64,000 bases of DNA from an uncultured Planctomycetaceae bacterium (GCA_964631945.1 CAZWAY010000005.1:53669-117668), one strand, 5' to 3'. Shown: positions 2,835-63,875, counted from the stretch's first letter. Translations and numbers: made by a program. The notes: generated from the letters alone by a model not told the origin.

Positions 2835-2835
2835 G

Positions 2836-3792
2836 TCAGCGCCGCGGCCGACTCGTGTCGCCCTGCGTCTCGGCCAGGCCGACGGCGTTCTTCAGCTCCT
2901 CGCGGTCCGGGAAGAGCGCGAGCCCCGCGCGCCAGGTCGCCAGCGCCTTGTCGCGCTCGCCCGCGGCCTGCTGCATGTTCCCGAGGAACAGGTAGGTCAT
3001 CGCGAACTCGGGCCGCGGCGGCTGCGTGGCCTGCTGCTCGAGCAGGGTCTCGAAGTTCTCGATCGCCTCCGGGCCGCGTCCGAGGAAGGCCGGCCAGTTG
3101 GAGAGCGAGACGGCCTTCGAGAAGCGCGCCGACCAGTTCTCGTCGTCCAGCGCCAGCGCGCGGTCGAAGGCCGCGTCGGACTTGTAGGCCAGCGGCCCGG
3201 CCTCGGGCGAGTTGCCCACCCCGAACAGCTTCTGCAGGTAGGCGTGCCCGAGCGCGATCTGCAGCTCGACGTTCTGGGGATCCTCGGCCGCGAGTTTCTC
3301 CATCGTGGCCACGTACTCGTCGATGCGCCCGTTCTCGCGCAGGGCCTGGAAGATCTCCTGGCGCTCGACGTTGTCGAAGCCGGTGGCCGACAGCGCGCGC
3401 ACGAGCTCCAGCATCGGGATGCTGGCGAGGTCGACCTCGCCCGGCTTCAGGGCGACGGGCGCGCGCGTGGCGCCGTGCGCGCCCGGCTCCGCCGGCGGGT
3501 GCGCGGCCTGCCAGCGCGCCAGCGCGGCGGCGATCTCGGACTCGCCGAGCTCGTTGCCGGGGACGGGCGCCGCCACCAGGGTGTCCGCGCGTTGCTCGAG
3601 CGCGGCGGCCAGGCGCCGGTTCTCCAGGCGCAGTCCCTCGAGCGCGGCGCGCAGCTCGGCCGCGCGCGCGCGCTCCACGGCGGGCGCCTCGTGCTCGAGC
3701 CCCGCGCGCGCGGGCTTCGCCAGGGAGCGCGCCCCGAAGGCGGCCACGGCCGCCACGAGGATCGTCGGCACGATCGTCACAAGGATCTTCAT
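2836..3792 (-). CDS. Membrane-anchored coiled-coil protein with C-terminal TPR-like domain (paralog A)
   Basis: Real start is MKILVTIVPTILVAAVAAFG at residue 164 of ORF 2836..4281. N-terminal TM helix, then a coiled-coil (LRAALEGLRLENRRLAAALEQ), then a helical-repeat domain (QIALGHAYLQKLFGVGNSP...WSARFSKAVSLSNWPAFLG...YLFLGNMQQAAGERDKALATW). The ATG overlaps the TGA of the upstream gene (TGATG). Confidence 0.6.
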   Translation of the reverse strand: MKILVTIVPTILVAAVAAFGARSLAKPARAGLEHEAPAVERARAAELRAALEGLRLENRRLAAALEQRADTLVAAPVPGNELGESEIAAALARWQAAHPPAEPGAHGATRAPVALKPGEVDLASIPMLELVRALSATGFDNVERQEIFQALRENGRIDEYVATMEKLAAEDPQNVELQIALGHAYLQKLFGVGNSPEAGPLAYKSDAAFDRALALDDENWSARFSKAVSLSNWPAFLGRGPEAIENFETLLEQQATQPPRPEFAMTYLFLGNMQQAAGERDKALATWRAGLALFPDREELKNAVGLAETQGDTSRPRR

Positions 3793-4673
3793 CAGCGTGC
3801 CCTCGCTTCCGTCTTCCGGCGCAGCTGCTCGTTGCCGGGGAAGCGCGCCGCGCCGCGCTGCCAGGTGGCGCGGGCCTTCTCGCCCTCGCCCATCTGATCG
3901 TAGAGGTTGCCGAGGAAGGTGTAGGTCCAGGCCTGCTTGGCCGAGGGCGCGGCGTGCTCCTGTTGCTCCATCAGGATCTCGAACTGGCGCACGGATTCGC
4001 CCTGCTTGCCGAGGAAGGTCGGCCAGTTGGAGAGCGCCATGGCCTTGTTGAAGCGCGCCTCCCAGTGCGTGTCGTCGAGCTCCAGCGCGCGGTCGAAGGC
4101 CCGGTCGGCTTTCTCGCCCCAGACCGAGGCCAGCGGGCCGATCCCGACGTCGAAGAGCTTCTGGATGTAGGCCTGGCCGAGCTCGCTCTGCAGGTCGGGG
4201 TTGTTCGGCGCGAGCCCGGCCTGGCGCTCGATCTCGGCCAGCACGGCGTCGATGCGCTTCTCGTCGCGCAGGGTCTGCCACAGTGCTTCCAGCTCGTCAC
4301 CCTCGACCTGGCCCGTGAGGATGCGATCGGCGATCGCGGCGCCCTCGAGGTCGGCCGGAGCCGAGCCGCTGGAGTGGTCCGAGCTCGCCTCGCCGCCGAC
4401 ACGCTTTGCCATGTAGGCCGCGATCGCCTCGTCGAGGTCCTGCGCGGGAACGCGCTGGGCGACCGGGGCGCTGGCGGGCGCGCTCGGCAGCGTCGCCAGG
4501 CGCTCGGCCAGGCGGGTCTGCTCGGCGCGCAGCTCGGCCAGCGCCGCAAGGAGCTCGGAGCTCTCGGGGGCGGCGCCGCGGGCCGCGCGCTCGGGCGCGG
4601 CCAGACGCGTGCTCCCGTAGCCGATCAGGGCGGCCACGACGGCCGCGATGGGGAGGTGGATCCAGTTCTTCAT
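3792..4673 (-). CDS. Membrane-anchored coiled-coil protein with C-terminal TPR-like domain (paralog B)
   Basis: C-terminal 293 aa of ORF 3792..6878, starting MKNWIHLPIAAVVAALIGYG. Same architecture and clear sequence similarity to paralog A (LGQAYIQKLFDVGIGP...WEARFNKAMALSNWPTFLG...YTFLGNLYDQMGEGEKARATW). The remaining 735 upstream codons of the ORF are Arg/Gly junk, antisense or out of frame to the anti-sigma gene. The start coordinate is plus or minus 1 nt. Confidence 0.6.
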   Translation of the reverse strand: MKNWIHLPIAAVVAALIGYGSTRLAAPERAARGAAPESSELLAALAELRAEQTRLAERLATLPSAPASAPVAQRVPAQDLDEAIAAYMAKRVGGEASSDHSSGSAPADLEGAAIADRILTGQVEGDELEALWQTLRDEKRIDAVLAEIERQAGLAPNNPDLQSELGQAYIQKLFDVGIGPLASVWGEKADRAFDRALELDDTHWEARFNKAMALSNWPTFLGKQGESVRQFEILMEQQEHAAPSAKQAWTYTFLGNLYDQMGEGEKARATWQRGAARFPGNEQLRRKTEARAR

Positions 4674-4783
4674 GGTTTGCTCGACGGGGTCTGCGGGGTC
4701 CGGGGCGGGCGGATCCGGCCCTCGGCTCGTCCTCTTCTTGTCCTCACCGCGCTCTTTCCTTCGCCGTTTCCCGCGGAAGTCCG

Positions 4784-7210
4784 CTAGCGCGGCGCGGGCG
4801 CCTGGCTCGCGGGCTCCGAGCGGGGCGCCGCGTCGGCGGGCACCAGCACGAGCAGCACCTCGGGCACGCTGCCCAGCTCGAAGCGGAACTCGACCGGCGT
4901 GCCCTGGTAGCCGGCCAGCTGGGCCACGACTCGGTAGCGGCCGGGCCGCAGGCCATGGGCGCGGAAGCGTCCGGCCGAGTCGGTCAGCGGCAGACGCGCG
5001 AACAGGTGCTCGCCGCCCTGGGCGTCGTAGAACACCACCGCCGCGCCCTCGAGCGCGCGCCCGTCGCCGTCGCGCACGAGCACGTCCGCCGGGCCACCCG
5101 CTTCCAGCGCGAGCTCGAGCTCGCGCGGCACGCCTTCGGCCCCGCTCTCGGACACGGTCACGCTCTCGCTCTGCGCGAAGCCGAGTCCGGGGCGGGTCGG
5201 GTAGGCGACGACGTGGTAGGTGCCGGGACGCAGCTGGGTGAAGGCGAAGCGTCCGTTCTCGTCGCTCAGGCCGAAGGCGTTGAAGGACGTGCGGCCGCCG
5301 CCTTCCTCGCGCATCATCATCAGAGCCGCCTGCCCGGTCGGCTCGGCGCTGTGCGCGTCGAACACCGAGACCGTCAGGCTGCCCGTGGGAACGCGCACGT
5401 CGCGCTCGACGTCCAGGACGTCGCGCGTGAGCTCGAACGCGTCCACGCAGCGCAGCTCGCGCCCGAGCTGGTCGATCAGGAACAGCTGATAGCGGCCCGG
5501 GCGCACGCCCTCGAAGGCGTAGGCCCCGTCGGCCAGGGTCGTGGTGGCGACCCAGTCCTGGTTCCAGCTGGCCGTCTCCATGTCGAACAGGCCCAGGTTC
5601 TGGAGCGCGAGCGGCACGTCCGCGCGCCCGAGGACCCGCCCGTGCAGGCGGATGCCGCGGCGCGCGGCGGCGAAGTCGGCGGTGATCGTCTGGCCCTCGA
5701 CGACCTGCACCGGGCGCACCTCGGGCCGCTCGCTGGCCGTGGCCGAGTCGCGGCTCATCATCACCACGATCATGGTCGCGGCCGGCAGGCGCTCGAAGCG
5801 ATAGCGTCCGTCGGCGTCCGTGCGGGTGTGGGCGTAGGACATGCGCGTGCGCTGGGCATCGTCCATGGCCACGATCACGAGCTGGGCCTCGGCACGCGGT
5901 CCGCCGTCCTCGCGCGTGACCCGGCCCTGGACCACGCCGCCCGCGCCGAGCGTGAAGACGAGCTCCTCGTCCCGCCCGCGCGGCGCGCGCACGGCGTCCT
6001 TCCAGGCCGGGGCGAGGTCCTCGGCGCCGGCGCGCAGGGTGTGCGTGCCCGGATGGAGGTGCGCCAGCTCGAAGCGTCCGTCGGGACCGGTGCGCGCCTG
6101 GATCGGCAGCCAGTAGGCGAGCTCGGAGAGGGGGAGCGAGAAGAACAGACCGTCGCTCGGGACCTCGTCCTCCGAGATCACCCACGCGTTCGGGACCGGG
6201 TTGCCGTGCTCGTCGAGCACGCTGCCGTGCACGCTGACGCCGGGCACGAGCTCGGCCCGCAGCCGCGGGAGCTCGTCCGCGAGCTCGAACTCGCCCAGCG
6301 CGCACAGCGCGTAGCCGGGCGCGTGCACGAACACGCGCTGCTTGCCGGCGGGCGGATCGGGCCAGCGGAAGGTCCCGTCGCTGCTCGTGAAGGAGCGCAC
6401 CTCGGGGGGCGGGGTCTGGTTGCTGCGGCGCTCGGCCAGCAGCGCCACGCGGAAGGCGCCGAGCGCGGCGCCGCCCTCGGCGACCACGACCTCGCCCGCG
6501 AGGACGCGCGCGGCGGCGCTGGCGGCCAGCGTGCCCGCGGCCACGGGCGCGGGCGCGAGCGGCTCGCGCGGCGTGCTGGGTGTCGCGCTCGTGAGCGGCT
6601 CGGTCCGTCCCTGGGGCGGTGCACCCAGGACTCGGGCGACGCCGCGCGCGAGCTCGAGGCGCTCGTCGCCGCGCTGGAACCAGGCCGAGCCGTCGCCGAG
6701 CGTGGCGCGCACGCCCGCCGCCTCCTGCTCGAGCGCGAGCTCGGAACGCGAGCCCACGTGCACGAGTCCCGCCGCCAGCCGCACCTCGAGCTCCGCGTCC
6801 TGCGGCGTGACCACCCGCAGGGTCGGCGGGACGAAGTCGAGCCCGCGCGCGCGCTCCTCCGCGGCGGCCGCGCGCCACGCTCCGCCGGGCAGGCCCAGCG
6901 CGACCTCGCCGCGCGCGAGCAGGCGTTGGCGCGGGTCGTCCGCTTCGCGTGCGAACAGGCGCCAGCCCAGGAAGAGCGCCAGCGCGGCCGCGGCCAGGAG
7001 CGCGACCCTGTGCAGCGGCCTCGGGAGCTGCCGGAGCGTGCCGGTGCGCGCGCGCCGGGTGCCGGCGCGGCGCGCGACCTCGCTGCGGCGCGCGACCTCG
7101 CTCAGGAACAGCGCCTCCAGCCGGTCGCGGAAGGGCGGTGCGGGCAGGGCCGGTACGTAGCTCCGGCGCAGCAGCAGGCGCAGGTTGCGTTCCAGGACGT
7201 CCGCGCTCAC
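4784..7210 (-). CDS. Anti-sigma factor: N-terminal cytoplasmic domain, one TM, and a large extracytoplasmic region with 5-6 CarboxypepD_reg-like repeats
   Basis: In ORF 4784..7576. GTG start VSADVLERNLRLLLRR... overlaps the TGA of the sigma gene (GTGA). TM is VALLAAAALALFLGW. Repeats: DGRFELAHLHPGTHTL, DADGRYRFERLPAATMIVV, DGAYAFEGVRPGRYQLFL, ENGRFAFTQLRPGTYHVVAY, DSAGRFRAHGLRPGRYRVVAQ. Confidence 0.7.
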   Translation of the reverse strand: MSADVLERNLRLLLRRSYVPALPAPPFRDRLEALFLSEVARRSEVARRAGTRRARTGTLRQLPRPLHRVALLAAAALALFLGWRLFAREADDPRQRLLARGEVALGLPGGAWRAAAAEERARGLDFVPPTLRVVTPQDAELEVRLAAGLVHVGSRSELALEQEAAGVRATLGDGSAWFQRGDERLELARGVARVLGAPPQGRTEPLTSATPSTPREPLAPAPVAAGTLAASAAARVLAGEVVVAEGGAALGAFRVALLAERRSNQTPPPEVRSFTSSDGTFRWPDPPAGKQRVFVHAPGYALCALGEFELADELPRLRAELVPGVSVHGSVLDEHGNPVPNAWVISEDEVPSDGLFFSLPLSELAYWLPIQARTGPDGRFELAHLHPGTHTLRAGAEDLAPAWKDAVRAPRGRDEELVFTLGAGGVVQGRVTREDGGPRAEAQLVIVAMDDAQRTRMSYAHTRTDADGRYRFERLPAATMIVVMMSRDSATASERPEVRPVQVVEGQTITADFAAARRGIRLHGRVLGRADVPLALQNLGLFDMETASWNQDWVATTTLADGAYAFEGVRPGRYQLFLIDQLGRELRCVDAFELTRDVLDVERDVRVPTGSLTVSVFDAHSAEPTGQAALMMMREEGGGRTSFNAFGLSDENGRFAFTQLRPGTYHVVAYPTRPGLGFAQSESVTVSESGAEGVPRELELALEAGGPADVLVRDGDGRALEGAAVVFYDAQGGEHLFARLPLTDSAGRFRAHGLRPGRYRVVAQLAGYQGTPVEFRFELGSVPEVLLVLVPADAAPRSEPASQAPAPR

Positions 7211-7854
7211 GCGTAGCCTCCGCGCTTCTTGGCGAGCAGCGTGAAGACCTTGCCGAAGGCCGTGCGCGCGCGCTGCAGCGTCGATTCGGCGGCCTTCTCG
7301 TGCTTGCCGGCGCGCGCCGCGATCTCGGCCGTGCTGAGCTCCTCGACGTACTTCGCCAGCAGCGCCTCGCGGTAGTCGGGCGGCAGCGAGGACAGCGTCG
7401 CGCCCACCAGCTCGCGCGTCTCCTCGCGCTCCAGCACGTCGTCCGGCAGCGGCTCGCGGTCGATCGCCATCAGCATGGCCTCGATCTCGGGATCGGCCTC
7501 GGCCAGCACGTCCTCGAGCCGCACCGGGCGCTGGCGCCGGCGCTGGGCGCGGATCTTGTTCTTGGCGATGCCGCACAGCCAGGTGTGCAGGCTGGCGCGT
7601 CCGTCGAAGGCCGCCAGGCGCTCGAGCGCCGTCAGGAAGGTGTCTTGCACCAGGTCCTCGGCCAGCACGCGGTTGCCGCCCACGCGGTAGTGCACGAACT
7701 CGTACAGCGCGCCCAGGTGGAGGCGGAAGAAGCCCTCGGCCGCCAGGCGGTCGCCGGCCAGGATGGCGTCGCGCGTGGCGAGGTCGGGAGGGCGGAGCGG
7801 GACCTGCACGGGGCCTTGGTGCCCGCCGGGCGCGGGGTCCTTCGCTCTTTCCAT
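7207..7854 (-). CDS. ECF-family RNA polymerase sigma factor
   Basis: Region 2 LAEDLVQDTFLTALERL and region 4 LPPDYREALLAKYVEELSTAEIAARAG. Start is MERAKDP at 7854, preceded by AGGAA five nt upstream. The ORF track begins at 7896 (alternative start). Gene order is sigma then anti-sigma, same strand, with a 4-nt overlap. Confidence 0.8.
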   Translation of the reverse strand: MERAKDPAPGGHQGPVQVPLRPPDLATRDAILAGDRLAAEGFFRLHLGALYEFVHYRVGGNRVLAEDLVQDTFLTALERLAAFDGRASLHTWLCGIAKNKIRAQRRRQRPVRLEDVLAEADPEIEAMLMAIDREPLPDDVLEREETRELVGATLSSLPPDYREALLAKYVEELSTAEIAARAGKHEKAAESTLQRARTAFGKVFTLLAKKRGGYA

Positions 7855-7953
7855 GGATTCCTGCCGCCTCGGGCGGGTGGGCACGCCGGCCGCCACCTTG
7901 CCCTCCCGCGCTCGCCCTGGCTAGGCTCGCCGGGGGGGAGCGACTCGAACACC

Positions 7954-8463: not shown

Positions 8464-9318
8464 ATGAGTTCCGATGCTCCGTTCGGCCAAGAGATTCCCG
8501 AGGCGGTGCGGGCCGAGGTCGTGCGCCGTCTGCAGGACATCGAACGCGAGCACGGCGTACGCGTGCTCTTCGCGTGCGAGTCCGGTAGTCGCGCCTGGGG
8601 GTTTCCATCACGGGACAGCGACTTCGACGTCCGATTCCTCTACCTGCGACCGACAGCTGACTACTTGAGTCCATTTCACGCCCGACAGCGAGACGTCATC
8701 GAGCCGCCGATAGTGGACGAGTTCGACCTCAGCGGCTGGGACCTGCGCAAGGCTCTCGTCTTGTTCGAGCGCTCCAATCCGCCGTTGCTCGAGTGGCTCG
8801 ATTCGCCGATCGTCTACCGCGAATCGACGGCGCTGGCCCGTGGGCTGAGACGGCTGCGGAGCACGTTCTACTCGCCGAAGGCAAGCGCGCATCACTACCT
8901 GAGCATGGCGCGCGGCAACTTGCGCGAGTACCTCACGGGCGAGGAGGTGTGGACCAAGAAGTACTTCTACGTCCTACGACCGCTGCTGGGCGTCTTGTGG
9001 GTCGAACGCGGCCTAGGGCCGGTCCCGATGCGCTTCGATCTGCTCGTCGCAGAGCTGATCACAGACACGGCCCTGCGTCGCGCCATCGACGATCTCGTGG
9101 TGCAGAAGCGTGCCGGCGAGGAACTACGGCGTGGCCCGCGAATCGAGCTGATCAGTTCCTTCCTCGATCGAGAGCTCGCGCGGCTCGAGACGACTCTAGC
9201 GCCGTCGGCGACCGAGCCGCGCGACTCCGCTCAGCTCGAGGACCTCTTCCTGGACACGCTCGTCGAAGTGTGGGGGGCGGGTCTCGCGCGTTCCCCGGAG
9301 TGTTCGACGGGTACTTAG
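8464..9318 (+). CDS. Predicted nucleotidyltransferase (COG3541 / Nuc-transf-like)
   Basis: Pol-beta-type NTase motif FACESGSRAWGFPSRDSDFDVRFLY plus a C-terminal helical domain. Markedly lower GC and different codon usage (TTG, CTA, AGT, ACA, GAT) than its neighbours. Its TAG stop abuts the TGA of the convergent GH20 gene. Confidence 0.7.
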   Translation: MSSDAPFGQEIPEAVRAEVVRRLQDIEREHGVRVLFACESGSRAWGFPSRDSDFDVRFLYLRPTADYLSPFHARQRDVIEPPIVDEFDLSGWDLRKALVLFERSNPPLLEWLDSPIVYRESTALARGLRRLRSTFYSPKASAHHYLSMARGNLREYLTGEEVWTKKYFYVLRPLLGVLWVERGLGPVPMRFDLLVAELITDTALRRAIDDLVVQKRAGEELRRGPRIELISSFLDRELARLETTLAPSATEPRDSAQLEDLFLDTLVEVWGAGLARSPECSTGT

Positions 9319-11265
9319 TCAGCCCTCCTTGCGCAGCGCCGCGAGGATGCGCTCGAGCCAGCGCGCGGAGCGGTCGAGGCCACCGGGGCGCGAGCGCAGC
9401 AGCCACAGCTCGCGGTGACGCTGGATCAGGGGCTCGAGGAACTCGGCCAGCGTCTCGCGTCGGCGTGCCGGTAGTTCTTCGAGCCCACGACCCTCGCCGG
9501 CCTCGAGGCGCCATTCGCCGAGGAAGCAAGTGAAGCGGAGGAGCTCGGCGGCCCACGACAGTTCTTGTCGGGCCAGGACGCCCTCGGTCGTCCTGGGAGC
9601 ATCGCCGCGGATGGAATCTCCGCCGAGGGAGGTCATGCGGGCCACGCGCCGAAGCCTCTCCGTATGGAGTCCGCGCAACTCGGGCGGCGGGAACGGCTGG
9701 TCGAACCTCGTGAGCAGCAGCGACAGCGCCGAGGCGTTGCGCACGGGCCGAGCGCATTCCGTTGCGAGCCCCCCGAGTCCGCTCATTGCGCCACCGAGGG
9801 GGCTCTGCGGGTCGCCGAACAGGTGCAGGTTCAGCAGTCTGGGAAGGGGCCACACGCCGCTCCCGCGCGCGTCGGCCGTCGGATTCCAGGCGAGATCGGC
9901 CGCCCGCAGGTAGCCGCTCCAGCTCACGCTCGGCGGCTGCAGGTGCCCGCGGTCGCCCCAGTCGGTGATCAGCAGTCCGCGCGCGCCGCGCTCGGCGCCC
10001 CAGCGCGCCGCCGAGGCGACGTTCGCGAGCATGTTGTCGATGCGCCCGCCGATCGACTGCCACGAGCCCGTGCCGGGGCAGACGTAGAACGGCAGGCCAG
10101 CGTCGGCGAGCGTCTTCGTCTGTTCCTCGAACGGGTGGTCGGCCTCGTAGCCCCACAGGCACGCGACCGCGTCCTTCGGCACCTCGGGCACGAGCTCCGC
10201 ATGATTCAGCAGGATGTCGGCCCAGAACTGCATGCGCCTGCCGCGCGCGCTGACGAGGCCGTGGACCGACCTCAGGAAGCCGAGGTAGACGCGCCCGACG
10301 CCCTGCGCGCGGATCGCGGCGGCGGAACGGCCCGGCCGGCCCTCGTCGCCCAGGTCGATCGTCTCGTCGAGCCCCACGTTGAAGTCGCCGCTCGTGAAAC
10401 ACGGCAGCAACTCGTCGTAGAGCCCGCCGAGGAACGCGAGGCTCCCCGGATCCGTGGGGCACAGGCTGAAGGGCTCCGCGTGCGTCTCACCCGCGCCGAG
10501 GAACGGGTGCACGAGGCCCTCGGGCACCTCGGCCAGGTGGCGGTACTCGGAATGCTTCAGCCAGTGGTGCAGGTGCCCGAAGCTCTGCTGGTTGGGGACG
10601 AGCTCGACCCCGTGCGCGGCGCAGTGGCGGTCGAGGGCGCGGATCTCGTCGTGCGTGAAGGGATCGACGCCGCGCCAGATGCGCTCGTGCGCCCGGTAGG
10701 CGAAGGCGTGCTCGCAGTAGAGCTGCAGCTCGTTCAGCTTCCACTCGGCGAGCCGCTCGACGAGCGCGAAGAGAGCGTCCATGCGCGGCACGCGGTCGCG
10801 GCTGACGTCGAGCATCACGCCGCGGCGTTCGAACGCGGGTGAGTCCTCGATCGCCAGCGCCGGCAAGGCGAGCTCGTGCCGCTGTCTGGGTGCGCCGCCT
10901 TCTGCTCCCTCGACCTGCGCCGTGCGCACGAGCTGCAGCAGCGTGCGCAGGCCGTGGTTCAGCCCGACCCCGCGGCTCGCCACGAGGCGCACGAGCCCCG
11001 GCTCGATCGTGAGTCCGTAGCCCTCGCGCGCATGTCCCGAGCGTCCGTCGAGCACGAGCTCGATCGCCTGCGGGCCCACGCCGAGAGCCACGCCGCGGCG
11101 CTCGAGCTCGAGGCGCAGACCATCCAGCGCCGGCGAGGCGAAGCCCGGAGGCGGCCGCAGGGCGAGCGGCGGCGAGAGCCGGAAGACGCCCGGACGCCGC
11201 TCGATCCGGCGCGGCGCGGGCAGCAGGAGATCCAGGCACGGGTCGAACGCGCTCATCGCGGGCAT
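9319..11265 (-). CDS. Glycoside hydrolase family 20 beta-N-acetylhexosaminidase
   Basis: RGVMLDVSRDRVP, ELVPNQQSFGHLHHW, and DETIDLG in GH20 catalytic (beta/alpha)8 context. 648 aa. Alternative start at M4 (nt 11256). Confidence 0.85.
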   Translation of the reverse strand: MPAMSAFDPCLDLLLPAPRRIERRPGVFRLSPPLALRPPPGFASPALDGLRLELERRGVALGVGPQAIELVLDGRSGHAREGYGLTIEPGLVRLVASRGVGLNHGLRTLLQLVRTAQVEGAEGGAPRQRHELALPALAIEDSPAFERRGVMLDVSRDRVPRMDALFALVERLAEWKLNELQLYCEHAFAYRAHERIWRGVDPFTHDEIRALDRHCAAHGVELVPNQQSFGHLHHWLKHSEYRHLAEVPEGLVHPFLGAGETHAEPFSLCPTDPGSLAFLGGLYDELLPCFTSGDFNVGLDETIDLGDEGRPGRSAAAIRAQGVGRVYLGFLRSVHGLVSARGRRMQFWADILLNHAELVPEVPKDAVACLWGYEADHPFEEQTKTLADAGLPFYVCPGTGSWQSIGGRIDNMLANVASAARWGAERGARGLLITDWGDRGHLQPPSVSWSGYLRAADLAWNPTADARGSGVWPLPRLLNLHLFGDPQSPLGGAMSGLGGLATECARPVRNASALSLLLTRFDQPFPPPELRGLHTERLRRVARMTSLGGDSIRGDAPRTTEGVLARQELSWAAELLRFTCFLGEWRLEAGEGRGLEELPARRRETLAEFLEPLIQRHRELWLLRSRPGGLDRSARWLERILAALRKEG

Positions 11266-11315
11266 TGTGGCGTCGGCGCCTGGCCGCGTCGCTGGCTAGA
11301 CTGCCGCGTCTCCCG

Positions 11316-12746
11316 ATGTCCACCGCCAAGCGTTTCTCCGTCCTGCGCGACCCCGTCCACGGCGACGTCTACCTCACGCACGAGGAGCTGGCCGTGCTCG
11401 ATACGCCCGAGATGCAGCGCCTGCGCGGGGTCAAGCAGCTCGGCACGGCGTACCTGGTCTACCCCGGCGCGCTGCACACGCGCTTCGACCACTCGATCGG
11501 GGTCCTGCACGTCACCCAGCGCATGGTCGAGGCCATCAACCGCAACTTCGAGCTCGCGCCGCGCGACACGCTCGGGATCAGCGAGCGCGAGGCGCGCATC
11601 CTGCGCATCGCCGCGCTGGTGCACGACATCACGCACATCCCCTTCGGGCACCACATCGAGGACCAGGCCGGGCTGTTCGCGCGCCATGACTCCGGGCACC
11701 GCTTCCGGCGCGTGCTCGGACCCGAGCGCGAGCTCGGACGCCTGCTGGAGCGCCTGGGCGTGCGGCGCGAGGTGCTGGGCACGCTGCTGGTCGCGAAGCA
11801 GCGCGAACCGCAGGACGGCGGGCAGCTCCCGGGCGAGGCCGACGAGCGCGAGGGCATGCCCGTGCCGCCCTACTGGAGCCAGGTGCTGTCCGACACGATC
11901 TGCTCCGACATCCTCGACTACCTGCAGCGCGACGCCTACTTCACCGGGTTGCAGCTGGGGGTCGACCCGCGCGTGGCCTCGTACTTCAAGATCGACCGCG
12001 CCAGCGGCAACCTCTACCTCGACCTCGCCAAGCGCGAACTCCTGCGCGAGGACATCCTGAGCGAGGCCATCCGCCTGCTCGAGGCGCGCTACTACTTTTC
12101 CGAGCGCGTCTACTATCACCACGCCAAGGTGGCCTCGGGCGCGCTCGTGGCGCGCGCGGTCGAGCTGGCCGTGGCGCACGAACTCCTGCGCGAGGAGGAC
12201 CTGTACGACCGCACCGACGCCACGCTGCTCGAGCTCCTGGAGCAGCGCGCGGGCCGCGCCGAGCCGGAGCTCGCGCGCAACCTGCGCAGCCTGTGCGAGC
12301 GCTTCCGGAACCGCCGCCTACCGAAGCGCGCCTGCGTTTTTCCGCGCTACGAGAACAGGGCGGTGCAGGAGGATCTGGTGGCGCGCATCTTCGCGCCCGA
12401 GGCGCGCGCGCAACGCTCGGCCATCGAACGACGCATTGCCGACCTCGTGCACTTCGGGACAGGGAAACGCGTCGAGGTGATGCTGCACTGCCCCGCGGCG
12501 AAGATGCAGCTCAAGGAGGCCCGCACGCACGTGCGCTGGCCGGGTGAGAATCGCGTTCGGCCGCTGTCCGACTTCGCCGATCGCGTCCCGCGCCTGGGCG
12601 ACCTCGAGCGCGCCTACCGCGATCTCTGGAAGTTCTACGTCTTCGCCGACAGCTCCGACCCGAGCCTGCTGCGCAAGGTCCAGGAGGTGGCTTTGGGTGA
12701 GTTTCCGGGCGCCAAGAACGTGTATCGCATCGAAGGCGCAATGTAG
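11316..12746 (+). CDS. HD-domain phosphohydrolase, dGTPase/SAMHD1-like dNTP triphosphohydrolase family
   Basis: Start MSTAKRFSVLRDPVHGDVYLT at residue 18 of ORF 11265..12746. HD motif RFDHSIGVLHV...ALVHDITHIPFGHHIED, and a C-terminal YYHHAKV region. Confidence 0.85.
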   Translation: MSTAKRFSVLRDPVHGDVYLTHEELAVLDTPEMQRLRGVKQLGTAYLVYPGALHTRFDHSIGVLHVTQRMVEAINRNFELAPRDTLGISEREARILRIAALVHDITHIPFGHHIEDQAGLFARHDSGHRFRRVLGPERELGRLLERLGVRREVLGTLLVAKQREPQDGGQLPGEADEREGMPVPPYWSQVLSDTICSDILDYLQRDAYFTGLQLGVDPRVASYFKIDRASGNLYLDLAKRELLREDILSEAIRLLEARYYFSERVYYHHAKVASGALVARAVELAVAHELLREEDLYDRTDATLLELLEQRAGRAEPELARNLRSLCERFRNRRLPKRACVFPRYENRAVQEDLVARIFAPEARAQRSAIERRIADLVHFGTGKRVEVMLHCPAAKMQLKEARTHVRWPGENRVRPLSDFADRVPRLGDLERAYRDLWKFYVFADSSDPSLLRKVQEVALGEFPGAKNVYRIEGAM

Positions 12747-12961
12747 CCCCAAGGCCCCGCGCAGGCCGTCCGCGCCTCGATTCGGAAACTTCGGACGAAA
12801 CCGCTGTCCGGAGTCGGAGTACTCGGCAATGGAACCTGTGAGCGACTTGCTCCGTCCGATGAGCACAGCAGTTCGGTGTGACCAGTGAATGACCGTTGAA
12901 CGATCGAGTCGACGATTCGCTACGACGTGACGACCTGATCCCGAGGAGGGGATTCGAACCC

Positions 12962-13162
12962 GTGGAATCAACTACGCAACTCCTGACCAAGAGCGCGCTG
13001 TGCCCTGAGTGTGGAGCCGAGGTGCGACTCGTTGGTCGACTCCTGATCGGCGAGGTCTTCGGCTGCAGCCAGTGCAAGGCGCAGATCGAGGTCGCGAGCT
13101 GCGACCCGCTGGAGCTCGAGCCGTTCGCCAAGGTCGAAGAGGAAGAGGAAGACTTCGTCTAG
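12962..13162 (+). CDS. LysW-like zinc-ribbon small protein (amino-group carrier protein family) with acidic tail EEEEEDFV
   Basis: ALCPECGAEVRL...GEVFGCSQCKAQIEVASCDPLELEP matches the LysW zinc-ribbon pattern (CPECGAE.RL / C..C.A..EV...DPL.LEP). An in-frame GTG at 12962 is preceded by a perfect GAGGAGG at 12943-12949. The ORF track starts at ATG 12896 with no RBS. Low-GC islet. Confidence 0.55.
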   Translation: MESTTQLLTKSALCPECGAEVRLVGRLLIGEVFGCSQCKAQIEVASCDPLELEPFAKVEEEEEDFV

Positions 13163-13284
13163 CGCCGGCGCGGCGGGAGCGCCCGAGACCTTTGGAGGGG
13201 GTCGTCGCAGTGGGGCTGTCCCGCTGCTGGACTTGCCGGTGCGGAAACGCATGAGCGTTTCGACGCGCTAGACTTCGCGCGCTC

Positions 13285-14406
13285 GTGCTCCCGCTCCTCG
13301 CCCTGATCCTGGCCGCCGCCGGGGCCCACCCGAGTTCGCTCAGCCGCACGCAGATCCGTGTGGCCGGTCCGCGCGCGACCGTCGAGCTGCGCTTCCAGGC
13401 CCTGTCGCTGCTCGAGGCGCGCCCCGAGTTCGAGCGCGTGCGCGACGGCTTCCTCGATGCCGAGGAGCTCGCGGCCGCGCGTGCCGAGATCGAGACCTAC
13501 CTGCTGGCCGAGCTGCGCCTCCTGCGCGTGGTCGCCGGGCGCGAGGAGCCGCTGCGCGGGCAGGTCTTCGCGCTCACGTCCGAGGATCCGGCCCGCCTCG
13601 GGCCCCTGGACCTGCAGAACGTCGAGGTCCAGTTCCTGTTCGAGGCCCAGGAGGACCTGGAGGTCCTGGTGGTGGAGTCGCAGCTCTTCCACGAGACCAA
13701 TCCCTGGCACCAGGACTTCACCACCGTGGAGTGGAACGGGGACGCGCCCGTGCACCACACCTTCGAGGGCGCCGAGACGCGCTGGCGCTTCGAGCCCGCC
13801 CACGTGCGGCGGCCCGGCGTGTTCACGGTGTTCCTGCGGCTCGGGATCGAGCACATCCTCGGCGGCTACGACCACCAGGCCTTCCTCCTGGCCCTGCTGG
13901 TGGCCTCGCGTCGCGTGCGCTCGCTGGTGGGCGTGGTCACGGCCTTCACGGTGGCGCATTCGATCACCCTGGGGGTCGCGGCGCTCGGGCTGGTGCACCT
14001 GCCGTCGCGCTTCGTCGAGCTGGCCATCGCGCTCTCGATCGCCTACGTGGCTTGCGACAACCTGCTGCGGCGCGCGGCACGCGATCCGTGGCTGGAGGCC
14101 TTCGCCTTCGGGCTCCTGCACGGCCTCGGCTTCGCGGGCTTCCTGGGTGCGGCCCTGAGCGGCGAGCCGCTGATCGTGACGGCCCTGTTCGGCTTCAATC
14201 TGGGGGTGGAGCTGGGCCAGCTCGCGCTGGTCTCGGCCTGCCTGCTCGGATTTGCCGTGCTCTTCCGGCGCTGGCGTCGCGCGCGGGACGGCGCGTCGCA
14301 CCCGGGCCTGGTCCCGCCCGCCGTGCGCGACGGCGTCTCGGTCGTGGTGGCGCTGGCGGGCTTCTACTGGTTCTGCGAGCGCGCCGGCTGGCTGCCCTGG
14401 GGCTGA
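13285..14406 (+). CDS. HupE/UreJ_2-family membrane protein with N-terminal secreted domain
   Basis: GTG start with a signal-like N-terminus VLPLLALILAAAGAHP. Signature GIEHILGGYDHQAFLLALLVAS followed by multiple TM helices. Confidence 0.6.
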   Translation: MLPLLALILAAAGAHPSSLSRTQIRVAGPRATVELRFQALSLLEARPEFERVRDGFLDAEELAAARAEIETYLLAELRLLRVVAGREEPLRGQVFALTSEDPARLGPLDLQNVEVQFLFEAQEDLEVLVVESQLFHETNPWHQDFTTVEWNGDAPVHHTFEGAETRWRFEPAHVRRPGVFTVFLRLGIEHILGGYDHQAFLLALLVASRRVRSLVGVVTAFTVAHSITLGVAALGLVHLPSRFVELAIALSIAYVACDNLLRRAARDPWLEAFAFGLLHGLGFAGFLGAALSGEPLIVTALFGFNLGVELGQLALVSACLLGFAVLFRRWRRARDGASHPGLVPPAVRDGVSVVVALAGFYWFCERAGWLPWG

Positions 14407-15923
14407 GAGGCTCCGCTCGCCGCCGCCAGCAGGCGTTCGATGCGCTCGACGTCCTCGCGTCCGAAGCCGCGCGTGGTGCGCGTGAGCTCGCGCGCACGCG
14501 TGAGGTGCGCGACGGCGTCCGCCGGCCGTCCGGCCTCGAGGTACAGCGCGCCGAGCGCGATGCACAGGCGACCCTCGGTCTCGGGCCAGAGCTTCGTCTC
14601 GCGCGCGAGCTCGGCGCTGGCCTGGTCGAGGGCGCGCTCGAGGCCCGCCGGCGAGGCCGCGCCGGCCGAGCGCACCAGGTCCTCGAGCAGGCTCGCCGCC
14701 AGCGCGGCCTGGGCGTGGGCGCGCCAGCCCAGGCTCGCCTCGGTGCGGCTCTGCAGCAGGCCGCGGTAGAGCCCGGCCACCCCCACCCCGAGCGAGAGCA
14801 GCGCCAGCAGCACGGCCGCGCTCGCCAGGCGGTTGCGGCGCACGAACAGCCAGGCGCGGCGCAGGGGCGCGGCGGGGCGGGCGGCGAGCGCCCGTCCCGC
14901 CAGGAAGCGCTCGAGATCGCGCGCCAGCTGCTCGACCGAGCCGTAGCGCGCGGCCGGATCGGGCGCCAGCGCCTTGGCCACCAGCGCGTCGAAGTCACCC
15001 CGCAGGCGTCGCGCCAGCGCGGCGGGTTCCGCCGGCGGTGCCGAGCGCGCGCGCGCGGCCGAGTCCGAGAGCACCGCGACGCTGGCCGGCACGAGCTCCG
15101 CGCCCGGTTGACCCGCGAACGGCCTGCGGCCGGTGGCGAGCTCGTACAGCACGGCCCCCAGGCTCCACACGTCGCTCGGCGTTCCGAGCGCCCCGCCCGC
15201 GAGCTGCTCGGGGCTGGCGTAGCCGGGTGTGAGCGCGCGCTCGGCGCCGACCTCGTCCGAGAGCAGGCGTGCGATCCCGAAGTCCAGCAGCTGCGGTATG
15301 CCCTCGCGCGTCACCAGCACGTTGTCCGGCTTGAGGTCGCAGTGTGCGATCAGGCGTTCGTGGGCGTGCTGCACGGCCGCGCACACCGCCAGGAACAAGC
15401 GCAGGCGCGCCTCGAGCCCGAGCCCGTCGGCGAAGCGATCGAGCGCGAGTCCCTCGACCAGCCGCGTCGCCAGGTAGGGCCGTCCGTCGTCCAGCAGGCC
15501 CGCGTCCACCAGCGGCACGATGAACGGGTGGTTCAGCGCGGCCAGCGTGCGGCGCTCGGCCTGGAAGCGGCGCAGAACCCCGGCGGCGTCGTCCCGCCGG
15601 CGCAGCACCTTGACGGCCACGCGCCAGCCCTCGGCGCCGTCCGCGCGGCGTGCCCGGTAGACGTCGCTCGCCCCGCCGCTCGAGAGGCGTTGCTCGAGGA
15701 TCCATGGTCCCGCACCGTGGCCCACGAGCTCGCTCTCGGCCGCGGGCCGCTCGAGGAACTCGGGCGCGGCCTCGGCTGCCGCCAGCAGCTCGGCGACCTG
15801 GCGCGCGAGCGCGGGATCCTCGGCCGCGAGCTCTGCGAGGCGCGCGCGGCGCTCGGGCGCGGCGAGCTCGATCAGCTCGTCGAAGGCGCGCCGCACGGAG
15901 CTGGTGATGCCGGTGGTCGTCAT
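14364..15923 (-). CDS. Serine/threonine protein kinase with TM and C-terminal helical (TPR-like) domain
   Basis: Start MTTTGITSSVRRAFDE at residue 91 of ORF 14364..16193. Kinase motifs VAVKVL, HCDLKPDNVLV, DFGIAR, and GTPGYASPEQ. TM is AAVLLALLSLGVGVAGLY. The 3' end overlaps the HupE-like gene by about 43 nt, convergently. Confidence 0.8.
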   Translation of the reverse strand: MTTTGITSSVRRAFDELIELAAPERRARLAELAAEDPALARQVAELLAAAEAAPEFLERPAAESELVGHGAGPWILEQRLSSGGASDVYRARRADGAEGWRVAVKVLRRRDDAAGVLRRFQAERRTLAALNHPFIVPLVDAGLLDDGRPYLATRLVEGLALDRFADGLGLEARLRLFLAVCAAVQHAHERLIAHCDLKPDNVLVTREGIPQLLDFGIARLLSDEVGAERALTPGYASPEQLAGGALGTPSDVWSLGAVLYELATGRRPFAGQPGAELVPASVAVLSDSAARARSAPPAEPAALARRLRGDFDALVAKALAPDPAARYGSVEQLARDLERFLAGRALAARPAAPLRRAWLFVRRNRLASAAVLLALLSLGVGVAGLYRGLLQSRTEASLGWRAHAQAALAASLLEDLVRSAGAASPAGLERALDQASAELARETKLWPETEGRLCIALGALYLEAGRPADAVAHLTRARELTRTTRGFGREDVERIERLLAAASGASQPQGSQPARSQNQ

Positions 15924-15933
15924 GGCCCGCCGT

Positions 15934-16488
15934 CTAACCGTCGGCTCCGATGCGGCGGTGCAGCCAGCCCTTGGCGAGTTGCCAGCGGCGCTTGACGGTG
16001 CGCGGCGAGAGCCCGAGCGCCGCGCCCACGGCCTCGTTCTCGAGCCCGGCGAAGAAGCGCAGCTCGACCAGGCGCGCGAGCTCGGGATCGAAGCTCGCGA
16101 GCTCCGCCAGGGCGCCGTCCAGGGCCACCACGTAGGCGTCGCGCTCGACCGCGGCCGTGCCCTCGTCCAGCGCGAGCGGTTGGCGCCCCTCACCGCGCTT
16201 CAGCGCCGCGCGCCGGCGCGCGTGATCGACCAGTGCCTCGCGCATGACGTGGGCCGCGAGCGCGACGCGCGAGGCCTCGGCCGGCGGCGGCCAGGCGCGG
16301 AGCTTCAGCCAGGCCTCGTGCACGAGCTCGGTCGGGGCCAGGGTGTGCCCGCGCCGCTCGAGCGCCAGGTAGCCGGCCGCGAGCTCGCGCAGCGTGGCGT
16401 AGGTCGCGGTGGTCCAGCGCGCGGGAGCCGCCGGTGACGGTGCGGATTCCTCCATCGAGTCGGCCCGATCATACGGGCATCCGCGCAC
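15934..16488 (-). CDS. ECF-like sigma factor of the kinase-associated type
   Basis: TELVHEAWLKL (region 2-like) and LGLSPRTVKRRWQLAKGWL (region 4). The TAG stop lies 10 nt upstream of the kinase ATG. Alternative start at M12 (nt 16455). Confidence 0.75.
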   Translation of the reverse strand: MRGCPYDRADSMEESAPSPAAPARWTTATYATLRELAAGYLALERRGHTLAPTELVHEAWLKLRAWPPPAEASRVALAAHVMREALVDHARRRAALKRGEGRQPLALDEGTAAVERDAYVVALDGALAELASFDPELARLVELRFFAGLENEAVGAALGLSPRTVKRRWQLAKGWLHRRIGADG

Positions 16489-25704: not shown

Positions 25705-25890
25705 GTCGGCCTGCCTGTGCGGTTTGAAAGCCGCGGGCTTGCAGATCGGCCCCCACGCCACCATCCTGATGGCCCGCTTCGTCCCCGACCCCCAGTCGCT
25801 CCACCCGCCTCCCCCTGCGCGCGGACAGATCCCAGCGCCCCGCTCCCGGGCCGAGGCGGCCGGAACCGTGCCTCCCATCGCTCCTGAACC

Positions 25891-26490
25891 GTGGCTGACG
25901 TTTCTGACGTGAAGGAAGAGAAGCGACCCGCCGAGGGCGCCGCGCCCGGTGGGCCGCAAGGAGGCGCCGACGCGCCGGGGCTCGTGCGTGCGCCGCTGCG
26001 CGGCGAGGTCTCGCGCCGGGGACTCTTCTCGGTGCTCGGATTCGGCTGGGCGATCTTCGCCGGCGCCTCGGCCGGCATGCTGGGCGCGATGGGGCGCTTC
26101 ATGTTCCCGAACGTGCTCTACGAGCCGCCCCAGGAGTTCAAGGCGGGCTATCCCGAGGACTTCGCGGTCGACGCCGTGGACGAGCGCTTCAAGGCCACCT
26201 ACGGCGTGTGGATCGTGCGCGAGACGACCGGCTTCTACGCGCTCTCGACCGTGTGCACGCACCTCGGTTGCACGCCGAACTGGCTCTCGGCGGACGAGAA
26301 GTTCAAGTGCCCGTGCCACGGCTCGGGCTTCGTGAAGTCGGGCATCAACATCGAGGGCCCGGCGCCGCGCCCGCTCGAGCGCTACCGGATCCTCCTGGCG
26401 GAGGACGGCCAGATCCAGATCGACAAGAACACGAAGTACCAGCAGGAGAAGGGGCAGTGGGAGATGGACGGCGCCTACCTGAAGGTCTAG
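25891..26490 (+). CDS. Rieske [2Fe-2S] iron-sulfur subunit of a cytochrome b/c-type complex (TAT-exported)
   Basis: GTG start. Twin-arginine SRRGLFSVLGFGWAIFAG. Rieske boxes CTHLGC and CPCHGS. Confidence 0.9.
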   Translation: MADVSDVKEEKRPAEGAAPGGPQGGADAPGLVRAPLRGEVSRRGLFSVLGFGWAIFAGASAGMLGAMGRFMFPNVLYEPPQEFKAGYPEDFAVDAVDERFKATYGVWIVRETTGFYALSTVCTHLGCTPNWLSADEKFKCPCHGSGFVKSGINIEGPAPRPLERYRILLAEDGQIQIDKNTKYQQEKGQWEMDGAYLKV

Positions 26491-26529
26491 GCCGCAGGCT
26501 CCAGCGCCCCCACGTCCACGTCACTCGCG

Positions 26530-27306
26530 ATGCAGAAGCTCCTCCAGGCCGTCCGCGACACGCAGCTCTGGCGTTCGATCTTCCGGCACGGCTATCCGGA
26601 CACGCCGCGCAACCGCACGCTCGCGGTGCTCTCGAACACGTTCCTGCACCTGCACCCGGTCAAGGTGCGGCGCAGCGGCATCCGGCTCTCCTACACCTGG
26701 TGCATGGGGGGACTGACGTTCTTCCTGTTCCTGGTGGAGACGATCACGGGTCTCCTGCTGATGTTCTACTACCGGCCGACGGCCGAGGCCGCCTACCAGG
26801 ACATCCTCGGGATCCGCGAGCACGTCGCGCTGGGCGTGATGCGCGAGATGCACCGCTGGGCGGCGCACATGATGGTGATCACGGTGTGGTTGCACATGTA
26901 CCGGGTCTTCCTGACGGGCTCCTACAAGCCGCCGCGCGAGTTCAACTGGAACGTGGGCGTGATCCTGCTGGTGCTCACGCTGCTCCTGTCCTTCACGGGG
27001 TACCTCCTGCCCTGGGACCAGCTGGCGGTGTGGGCCATCACGGTCGGCTCGAACATGGCGCGCGCCACGCCGTTCCTCGGGCACGAGGGCCCGGGCGCTT
27101 CGCTGCTCTCCTTCGGCGGGCTCAACTTCGTGCACGCCGGCGACGACGCGCGCTTCGGTCTCCTGGCCGGGCGCTTCGTGGGCGAGGGCGCGCTGCTGCG
27201 CTTCTACGTGCTGCACTGCGTCGGGCTGCCACTGGCGGCGGCCACGCTGATGGCGATCCACTTCTGGCGGGTGCGCAAGGACGGCGGCATCTCGGGGCCG
27301 CTCTAG
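26530..27306 (+). CDS. Cytochrome b, N-terminal half (cytochrome b6-like, haem-binding four-helix bundle)
   Basis: HRWAAHMMVITVWLHMYRVFLTGSYKPPRE, plus His ligands in helices B and D (GYLLPWDQLAVWAITV). 258 aa. Confidence 0.9.
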   Translation: MQKLLQAVRDTQLWRSIFRHGYPDTPRNRTLAVLSNTFLHLHPVKVRRSGIRLSYTWCMGGLTFFLFLVETITGLLLMFYYRPTAEAAYQDILGIREHVALGVMREMHRWAAHMMVITVWLHMYRVFLTGSYKPPREFNWNVGVILLVLTLLLSFTGYLLPWDQLAVWAITVGSNMARATPFLGHEGPGASLLSFGGLNFVHAGDDARFGLLAGRFVGEGALLRFYVLHCVGLPLAAATLMAIHFWRVRKDGGISGPL

Positions 27307-27316
27307 GGCACGGCTC

Positions 27317-28399: not shown

Positions 28400-28408
28400 G
28401 CGAGCTCG

Positions 28409-37437: not shown

Positions 37438-37561
37438 CGGGCGAGGAGCGGGGAGTATAGAGCTGCTCGCACGGCCCGCCCCTGTTCGCCTCGATTGAAT
37501 GGGAGGTGTACGAGCGAGTAGGCTCGCGCCCTCGCCATCCGCGCTGGAGGGGAACTGACCG

Positions 37562-61167: not shown

Positions 61168-61197
61168 GGGCGCTCGATGACGCCCCCCACGGCCCGG

Positions 61198-61215
61198 ACC
61201 CTAACAAAAGGCGAA
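61198..61215 (-). promoter_or_regulatory. Conserved 18-nt motif (coding-strand TTCGCCTTTTGTTAGGGT) about 30 nt upstream of dnaE2: candidate SOS operator overlapping an extended -10 (TGTTAGGGT)
   Basis: 16 of 18 nt identical to the motif at 63876-63893 upstream of imuB (TTCGCCATCTGTTAGGGT). Resembles a GTTC-N7-GTTA direct repeat. Confidence 0.45.
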
Positions 61216-61314
61216 TCCGCCGTCCAGTTCTCCGGCGCGGTTCGCCGCGGTGGACGCCGCCCGTCCGCACCCCCAGAATGCCCGCCTTCCATTTCCCCCG
61301 ACGAACGAGCATCC

Positions 61315-61449: not shown

Positions 61450-61495
61450 TTCCCCGCGCGGGGGCGCCCCGCCTCGCCCGCCCGACTTCCGGCGT

Positions 61496-62437: not shown

Positions 62438-62481
62438 GCGCACGGGACGAGGGCCATGACCACGCGCACCGAGGACGCCCG

Positions 62482-63852: not shown

Positions 63853-63875
63853 GCTCGGGATCCTCGCTGGCCGAA

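Follow-up and report, generated by a model that had tools for sequence, protein, structure and literature searches.

The locus considered here raises the question of whether a small zinc-ribbon protein resembling LysW still serves as an amino-group carrier protein (AmCP) or has been turned to another use. It lies in a stretch of 64,000 nucleotides from an uncultured Planctomycetaceae bacterium (GCA_964631945.1 CAZWAY010000005.1:53669-117668; hereafter the window, with positions counted from its first letter), in which a first-pass annotation had picked out a gene encoding a 66-aa product (VESTTQLLTKSALCPECGAEVRLVGRLLIGEVFGCSQCKAQIEVASCDPLELEPFAKVEEEEEDFV) as an orphan LysW-like protein with an unusual acidic end. 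In silico analyses indicate, with considerable confidence, that this product belongs to a family of non-carrier proteins with the LysW fold and an upstream promoter of the type used by sigma factors of the extracytoplasmic function (ECF) class. The gene and the elements that define it are the following.

12962..13162, + strand: LysW-like gene, 66 codons and a TAG stop (open reading frame, start register, substitution rates and match to PF21344)
12943..12949, + strand: Shine-Dalgarno sequence GAGGAGG, 12 nt 5' of the GTG (direct reading)
13001..13123, + strand: zinc-ribbon globular core, residues 14-54 (CPEC...CSQC...LEP; alignment, AlphaFold2 and Foldseek)
13124..13159, + strand: acidic C-terminal tail, residues 55-66 (FAKVEEEEEDFV), lacking the EDWGE terminal-Glu attachment motif (model confidence and family tails)
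12831..12856, + strand: ECF-sigma-type promoter-like element GGAAC-N17-CGTC, with the -35 GGAAC at 12831-12835 and the -10 CGTC at 12853-12856 (phylogenetic footprint)

The open reading frame (ORF), its GTG, the GAGGAGG and the EEEEEDFV end of the product were all found in the sequence as initially described. The coding sequence runs on the plus strand from GTG 12962 to a TAG at 13160-13162, and a longer in-frame ORF could be opened from a TTG at 12896. GTG 12962 rather than this TTG was retained as the start because the homologues begin at the same register: 34 of them share it in alignments, with an N-terminus of the form M/V/L-E-S/T-x-T. The ribosome-binding site is kept as GAGGAGG or GGAGG in orthologous loci. 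Ratios of non-synonymous to synonymous substitution rates (dN/dS) were 0.11-0.39 in nine pairwise comparisons, and the gene is therefore protein-coding and under purifying selection; residues R26, G30, E31 and E43 are invariant in relatives down to ca. 32% identity to the window protein. These data bear directly on the view that the gene is a decaying LysW duplicate or a spurious ORF without function, a view which could draw on its orphan position in the locus and on the absence of the tail that is functional in characterised relatives. Against it stand the dN/dS values, the conservation of the Cys ligands and of the four residues just named, the retention of the start, the ribosome-binding site and the upstream motif, and the existence of 41 cluster representatives at E<=1e-10 (see below). 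Selection and conservation effectively refute it, leaving it next to no chance of being correct.

Homology with LysW is clear in the globular part of the protein. The Pfam model of the LysW globular domain, PF21344, matches residues 14-54 (E=8e-12; 45 bits, gathering threshold 27), and a profile built from the family matches the LysW of Thermus thermophilus at E=2e-9 and that of Thermococcus at E=2e-6. The AlphaFold2 model, which comprises five beta strands, has a predicted local distance difference test score (pLDDT) above 90 for residues 9-54. When it was compared with the PDB using Foldseek, the best six matches were all LysW chains, every later match having E>0.6, and the best superposition gave a root-mean-square deviation (rmsd) of 0.8-0.9 Å over 45 residues with 49% identity to Thermus LysW. 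The zinc ligands are predicted to be Cys14, Cys17, Cys35 and Cys38; in a broad alignment the last three are invariant and Cys14 nearly so. Membership of the LysW-like zinc-ribbon superfamily is indicated by the PF21344 score, which exceeds the gathering value, and by the two CxxC knuckles, which superpose on solved LysW structures. As judged from its core sequence and modelled fold, the 66-aa protein is a genuine LysW homologue. The LysW/ArgW zinc-ribbon pattern recognised at first sight is thus borne out by PF21344, by the profile match to Thermus LysW and by the fold, and the LysW core conservation on which that proposal depended is present. The corresponding check against LysW profile models gave a divided result, since PF21344 was passed while TIGR01206 scored 39.9 bits, under its cutoff of 53.2; the second curated equivalog model, NF041070, was likewise missed (31.5 bits for a cutoff of 75).

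The C-terminal end is where the protein departs from LysW. Functional LysW/ArgW proteins have three to four zinc-binding Cys and a C-terminal EDWGE, and they are recognised by the GSWGR motif of LysX/ArgX; the terminal Glu of EDWGE carries the substrate via its gamma-carboxyl, an E54A mutant being auxotrophic (PMC10433800). Past the shared LEP, the window protein reads FAKVEEEEEDFV where Thermus LysW has APEEAEDWGE; when aligned by eye, an E-D-aromatic triplet is retained and the Gly-Glu end is lost. The non-canonical C-terminus reported by the first-pass annotation is confirmed and extends to the relatives. Over 113 subfamily members, the terminal residue is one of 17 different amino acids (D in 19, V in 18, E in 15, G in 13, others in the remainder) and tail length is variable, some tails being truncated and others extended by up to ca. 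20 residues, whereas 20 of the 21 canonical LysW sequences recovered in the same search end in Glu and have a fixed tail of 10 residues. All tails of the family are acidic, and an aromatic residue occurs within the last 12 positions in 82 of the 113. In the model of the window protein, the tail has a pLDDT of about 50 and is therefore probably disordered. The core also differs in charge: its net value is -3.3 +/- 1.6 for the subfamily (-4 for the window protein itself), compared with -7.1 +/- 2.5 in canonical LysW, so that the subfamily core is on average about half as acidic, with overlapping ranges. At the level of sequence, the carrier-defining EDWGE and its terminal Glu are lost in the family. 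Because the attachment motif is missing, the protein was placed in the LysW-like zinc-ribbon superfamily and not among the LysW carriers.

Among the divergent subfamily members (P0048, P0057, P0101 (identical to L035), L037 and P0103; and P0041, P0193, P0194, P0198 and P0217), a G-F-x-(x)-L-L or DFGLL end recurs, and one branch ends in EDFE(N/S)WG. Such endings, in which a short hydrophobic or aromatic terminus caps an acidic run, resemble C-terminal docking motifs of unrelated proteins.

Two functional proposals had initially been made for this tail, namely recruitment of a carrier homologue to a different function and use of the tail as a substrate for C-terminal modification. The first is the best reading of the data, as the carrier motif is absent and unconserved in the 113 relatives and purifying selection nevertheless persists. 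The second, in which the tail would be the target of an enzyme performing glutamylation, amino-acid ligation or trimming, is not supported: it predicts a conserved terminal residue or motif, and the observed end varies both in residue and in length, with the truncations and extensions mentioned above. The acidic run is conserved in alignments and RimK-type ligases do act on Glu-rich C-termini, but no linked ligase or peptidase gene was found in any annotated locus, and this explanation appears very improbable.

The genetic context was then considered for the enzymes that a carrier would require. When the likely genes of the 64-kb window were scanned with Pfam, no ATP-grasp/RimK protein, amino-acid kinase, semialdehyde dehydrogenase, class-III aminotransferase or M20 peptidase was detected, and no ATP-grasp, LysZ, LysY, LysJ or LysK gene was present in the annotated flanks of related loci. 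The lack of LysX, LysZ and LysY in the vicinity, noticed from the outset, is therefore confirmed for the window and these flanks, and extends to LysJ and LysK. An aminotransferase does belong to the conserved gene block described below; it is aspartate-aminotransferase-like and not LysJ/ArgD-like. The lysine-pathway literature for Planctomycetes yielded nothing decisive.

These results, taken with those on the tail, allow the most direct alternative to be weighed, namely that the protein is still a genuine AmCP that relies on a ligase and tailoring enzymes encoded at another place in the genome and bears its substrate at a non-standard point, for example an internal Glu side chain or a processed C-terminus. 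Its core is 45-49% identical to that of Thermus LysW and superposes at 0.9 Å, the E-D-aromatic triplet of the tail aligns by eye with the E-D-W of EDWGE, and one sub-branch ends in EDFE(N/S)WG. Characterised carriers, however, need the terminal Glu (E54A auxotrophy, PMC10433800), whereas in this family neither the last residue nor the tail length is fixed; the strict LysW models remain under cutoff and the core has on average lost about half of its negative charge. Moreover, no ATP-grasp gene accompanies the gene in the window or the annotated flanks, although characterised lysW genes occur in operons such as lysWXJK (PMC3597687), and a stress-type ECF promoter would be unexpected for a housekeeping gene of amino-acid biosynthesis. 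Retention of a carrier function is for these reasons considered quite improbable, and a non-carrier family remains the favoured interpretation.

To gauge the extent of this family, 1.84 billion cluster representatives were searched exhaustively with HMMER; there were 478 matches at E<=1e-3, 41 of them at E<=1e-10. The sequences fetched from this search were divided into four classes. Class 1 is the present subfamily, with a R-L-L-I-G-E-V core and a tail of the form (A/R)(R/K)(I/V)EE-acidic-(F/L); class 2 is canonical LysW, which ends in EEDWGE; class 3 comprises tandem double ribbons with basic tails, and in class 4 a single ribbon is followed by a long poly-acidic tail whose last residue is W, Y or F. 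Among the tandem ribbons, P0038, P0043, P0053, P0058, P0067, P0071, P0072 and many more are proteins of 105-215 aa with two or three tandem LysW-like ribbons and, mostly, Lys/Arg-rich basic tails, while P0120, P0130, P0134, P0136 and P0146 are examples of single ribbons with long poly-Asp/Glu tails and a W, Y or F end. None of the tandem-ribbon or poly-Asp/Glu-tail proteins looks like a carrier.

The family was found only in metagenomes and in metagenome-assembled genomes (MAGs) labelled Planctomycetota. Its signature, IGEVFGCxxC, occurs in only one of 185,579 species-representative genomes, a Planctomycetota MAG, and the two subfamily members named at NCBI are also labelled Planctomycetes or Planctomycetota. 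Members are named "lysine biosynthesis protein LysW" or "alpha-aminoadipate carrier protein LysW" by the NCBI and JGI pipelines, a probable over-annotation. In the searchable literature, no account was found of a LysW-like family without carrier function.

The most informative feature of the locus, overlooked by the first-pass annotation, is the conserved ECF-type promoter motif upstream of the gene. Promoters used by ECF sigma factors are marked by GGAAC at -35 together with CGTC at -13 to -10 (PMC3397946), and the element at 12831-12856 has both, with a spacing of 17 nt that falls within the 16-18 nt expected of an ECF-dependent gene. Conservation was followed in 28 distinct lineages, assembled from contig look-ups and one metagenome scan. 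Besides the ribosome-binding site, GGAAC-N17-CGTC is the only conserved block in upstream spacers that otherwise align poorly; the exact N17 motif is kept in 21 of the 28 lineages, 39-173 nt 5' of the start codon, with diverged spacer, flanks and distances. Lineages bearing it include three whose LysW-like protein is only 43-45% identical (L016, L041 and L043), and it stays with the gene in two copies that have moved to another context (L034 and, as TGTC, L030) as well as in L041, which lacks the usual downstream gene. A search of ca. 206 kb of non-redundant loci, covering the two strands, gave 18 exact matches; 11 of these immediately precede the LysW-like gene, and most of the others lie inside ORFs. 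Planctomycetota have very many ECF sigma factors and few known targets.

Candidates for a cognate sigma factor and for a second member of the regulon were also considered. An ECF sigma gene recurs 3-5 kb upstream of the LysW-like gene in several loci (7207-7920, minus strand, in the window), and autoregulation of this gene was rejected because no related motif occurs 5' of it in five loci; the same was true of the ECF/kinase pair at 14364-16488. A match at 37551-37576 (plus strand), upstream of an SPFH/Band 7 domain, overlaps both the GGAGG ribosome-binding site and the ATG (37562) of a membrane-protein ORF and was thus attributed to chance rather than to a promoter. The remaining matches in the window were dismissed as lying inside ORFs or on the wrong strand.

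The gene and its spacer had also been described as a low-GC islet. The dip in GC content is real, with 62.2% for the gene and 61.4% for the 215-nt upstream spacer compared with a window average of 71.5%; this spacer has the lowest GC of the 17 intergenic regions of the window, and the GC at third codon positions (GC3) of the gene is 0.79 compared with about 0.9 in its neighbours. A foreign insert is not supported: horizontal acquisition was ruled out by deep synteny of the locus across lineages, down to 41% protein identity, and the low-GC stretch is a promoter-bearing spacer and a small gene within an anciently syntenic block.

Other signals in this area were sought without success. A T-loop-like sequence, GGATTCGAACC, at 12950-12960 prompted a search for a tRNA or tmRNA on the minus strand, which was negative with ARAGORN and Rfam. 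A riboswitch or leader RNA in the 215-nt spacer was discarded, as there was no Rfam match and the spacer, which measures 128-260 nt across lineages, is unconserved outside the promoter motif and the ribosome-binding site. Neither a sigma-70 promoter nor an intrinsic terminator was found around the LysW-like gene.

The genes surrounding the LysW-like gene provide the candidates for its partner, and the two that adjoin it in the window are listed here.

11265..12746, + strand: HD and HD_assoc_2 protein (PF01966, PF19276), homologue of SAMHD1/EF1143-like dNTP triphosphohydrolases
13285..14406, + strand: HupE_UreJ_2 membrane protein (hereafter HupE2) of 373 aa (PF13795, E=7e-43)

The usual block consists of a GH20 hydrolase (minus strand), the HD protein (plus), the LysW-like gene (plus), HupE2 (plus), a class I/II aminotransferase (minus), a ca. 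680-aa protein of no assigned function (plus) and PFK; it is kept even where identity has dropped to 41-45% for the small protein and 65-67% for the HD protein. Of 26 informative lineages, 24 have HupE2 downstream of the LysW-like gene and in the same orientation, 25-260 nt away. The intervening sequence showed neither a promoter-like nor a terminator-like site, nor any significant RNA structure, folding no better than shuffled sequences (z=-0.8), and HupE2 is probably co-transcribed with the LysW-like gene in most lineages. Its product comprises a signal peptide, an unassigned N-terminal domain of ca. 180 aa and a His-rich permease domain, and orthologues keep invariant His motifs typical of metal permeases; no match was found in the PDB or NCBIfam, and neither a solved homologue nor a domain hint for the 185 N-terminal residues was obtained. 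The HD protein has its best PDB match with 2o6i (E=4e-26), followed by SAMHD1 entries; the true start of its gene may be an ATG at about 11316. The HD gene lies upstream in every syntenic locus, including the HupE2-less L041, with the promoter-bearing spacer between it and the LysW-like gene. HupE2 is missing in L041 and L042, in which the HD and LysW-like genes are retained. In L030 and L034 the LysW-like gene has other surroundings (in L030 it is flanked by genes for a TRAP permease and a phytase), whereas L028, the closest relative of L030, has the standard block. Since HupE2 is absent from L041/L042 and L030, and the HD gene from L030 and L034, neither neighbour is obligatory.

The mechanism that would best accommodate these observations is one in which the globular LysW fold has been kept while the fixed EDWGE-COOH tail has been replaced by a variable acidic tail that usually bears an aromatic residue, as in the EEEEEDFV of the window protein. 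An ECF sigma factor would induce the protein from its own promoter-like element, and the disordered acidic/aromatic tail, aided by the ribbon domain, would dock on a basic surface of a partner and modulate it. This would follow the docking principle that LysW uses on its enzymes, minus the attachment of a substrate; by analogy, the LysW-like protein probably meets its partners as LysW does, by electrostatic docking of an acidic protein. The likeliest partner would be the co-transcribed HupE2, ranked first because of the operon-like spacing, and the second candidate the adjacent SAMHD1-like HD enzyme. Thus, beyond the non-carrier family and its promoter motif, we infer promoter activity, co-transcription, the docking mechanism and the partner, and the complete picture of a LysW-derived, ECF-induced protein docking non-covalently through its tail has about an even chance of being right.

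Several observations weigh against this picture. The motif is missing in seven of the 28 lineages, one of which offers no upstream sequence, so that six lack it in a spacer where it could have been seen; it is not in itself rare in high-GC DNA, with six matches in the window for 2.7 expected, and it precedes neither the recurrent ECF sigma gene (in five loci) nor the second ECF gene of the window. As described above, HupE2 is absent from L041/L042 and L030, and the HD gene from L030 and L034. In addition, the whole block from GH20 to PFK is syntenic in one lineage, and adjacency may therefore reflect inheritance rather than function. A basic HupE2 loop was considered as a docking site; a conserved loop is present but would be expected for any membrane protein, and it was not counted as evidence.

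The importance of HupE2 could also be greater than proposed here, if the LysW-like protein were a dedicated cytoplasmic accessory of the permease, i.e. a metal-handling or gating subunit, in an ECF-controlled operon for nickel/cobalt-type metal homeostasis. ECF sigma factors controlling nickel and cobalt resistance do exist, CnrH being an example, and in 24 of 26 lineages the permease gene comes next on the same strand, at distances that can be as short as 25-28 nt and without a terminator in between, its product carrying the invariant His motifs of metal transporters. In L017, moreover, these motifs are lost together with the promoter footprint and the tail of the LysW-like protein has diverged. 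Persistence of the LysW-like gene and its promoter motif without HupE2 (L041/L042 and L030) argues against a dedicated subunit, as does the structural nature of the Cys4 zinc site in LysW, nothing pointing to exchangeable metal binding; the missing PDB and NCBIfam matches give no basis on which to deduce a substrate for HupE2, and the synteny may be inherited. Such an accessory role is regarded as unlikely, though less so than the other alternatives.

In the other direction, the protein might regulate the upstream SAMHD1-like dNTP triphosphohydrolase, for instance as an acidic inhibitor or activator made under stress, much as phage T7 Gp1.2 is a small acidic inhibitor of the E. coli dGTPase. 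No neighbour is more constant than the HD gene, which is retained even in loci that have lost HupE2, and its product is clearly SAMHD1/EF1143-like. The two genes are however separated by 128-260 nt containing a separate promoter motif, they are not adjacent in L030 and L034, and PADLOC revealed no defence-system signature beyond a weak match to the HD core. The chances of this proposal are rated as low as those of a persisting carrier. The PADLOC result also led to the rejection of a phage-defence system built on the SAMHD1-like protein. The reading of a non-covalent docking protein, with HupE2 as its first candidate partner, was retained over these two.

Further observations concern the same loci. 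In one lineage (L017/L018/L019), the HupE2 orthologue (L017:1453-2580) has lost its His motifs and its Pfam match, GGAAC-N17-CGTC is absent and the LysW-like tail has diverged, a pattern which may represent correlated decay of the unit. A Ser/Thr kinase (Pkinase) gene and a Planctomycete-type ECF sigma gene (PF07638) at 14364-16488 (minus strand) lie between HupE2 and the aminotransferase only in the lineage of the window; in the other syntenic loci that show both genes, the aminotransferase directly follows HupE2. This pair, in a region of 78-82% GC, looks like a lineage-specific insertion. Finally, four contigs (L001-L004) obtained from four samples in different sequencing runs all end 136 nt past the stop of the LysW-like gene, at the expected start of HupE2, a shared break that is possibly due to a repeat, to strain variation or to a difficult GC-rich structure.

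Elsewhere in the window, the minus strand carries a gene for a DnaE2-type DNA polymerase III alpha subunit (57688-61200) and a Y-family ImuB-like gene (62482-63999), with no ORF passing the GC3 filter in the 1.28 kb between them; the region 57688-63999 looks like a mutagenesis cassette of the imuA'-imuB-dnaE2 type. On the plus strand, 25888-31975 contains a Rieske gene, a split cytochrome b (26491-27306 and 27251-28399) and a gene for a multi-haem cytochrome c of 1191 aa, which together form the operon of a bc-type complex whose cytochrome c subunit is unusually large. Between the DinB-family and GH20 genes, 8464-9318 (plus strand) encodes a protein of the RlaP family (RNA repair pathway DNA polymerase beta family nucleotidyltransferase, E=2e-85), which is not found at the corresponding position in several related loci. 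A stretch of 1.9 kb at 2835-4783, with 73% GC, has no ORF passing the GC3-based coding filter.

The finding resolves no long-standing question, but it has consequences for annotation and for further work. A LysW label on this family would falsely imply an alpha-aminoadipate lysine pathway in metabolic reconstructions of Planctomycetota MAGs. The family offers a tractable example of carrier-protein repurposing, in which the fold and the acidic tail architecture would have outlived the covalent attachment site, and its tandem-ribbon and poly-acidic-tail relatives suggest a large unexplored group of non-carrier proteins with the LysW fold. A phylogenetic footprint of an ECF-type motif that is about as clear as an uncultured lineage could offer, with its motif, target gene and candidate operon, provides an entry to a Planctomycetota ECF regulon. 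As a more tentative extension, to which we give somewhat less than even chances, this could be the first case of a LysW fold exapted into a non-covalent, stress-induced regulator or adaptor, belonging to a Planctomycetota-wide ECF regulon and controlling a metal permease or a SAMHD1-like dNTPase through its tail, which would serve as a short linear motif for docking.

Comparison with known systems places the family closest to LysW/ArgW (TIGR01206; PDB 3WWL, 5EIO, 5K2M and 3VPB), with which it shares the Cys4 zinc-ribbon fold at the rmsd and core identity given above, the size class, and the order of a ribbon, LEP and a flexible, acidic tail that contains an aromatic residue. It differs in having neither EDWGE nor a conserved terminal Glu, a tail variable in length and end, and a core on average about half as acidic (with overlapping ranges), as well as a conserved N-terminal extension of 12 residues and the invariant R26, both of which are absent from LysW. 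Its surroundings also differ, with an ECF-type motif and HD phosphohydrolase and HupE2 neighbours in place of LysX/Z/Y/J/K. LysW homologues outside primary lysine and arginine biosynthesis have been noted before, as LysW-like AmCPs in secondary-metabolite gene clusters such as those of Family 3 encapsulins (bioRxiv 10.1101/2021.03.18.436031). Those proteins are embedded in clusters and presumed to be covalent tethers, whereas the present gene has neither a biosynthetic cluster nor an attachment residue. With respect to regulation, the GGAAC/CGTC pair at 17-nt spacing, conserved by phylogenetic footprinting, resembles the ECF regulons of the E. coli sigma-E type and that of Tt-RpoE1 (PMC3397946), with the difference that the nearby ECF sigma genes lack the motif of this candidate promoter. 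As for the tail, a disordered acidic run followed by an aromatic residue near the C-terminus recalls, as a resemblance in pattern, the docking tails of other proteins. Bacterial SSB (ending in DDDIPF) and T7 gp2.5 have acidic tails with an aromatic or hydrophobic end that dock non-covalently into basic or hydrophobic pockets; there is no homology with either, and the present protein has no DNA-binding domain.

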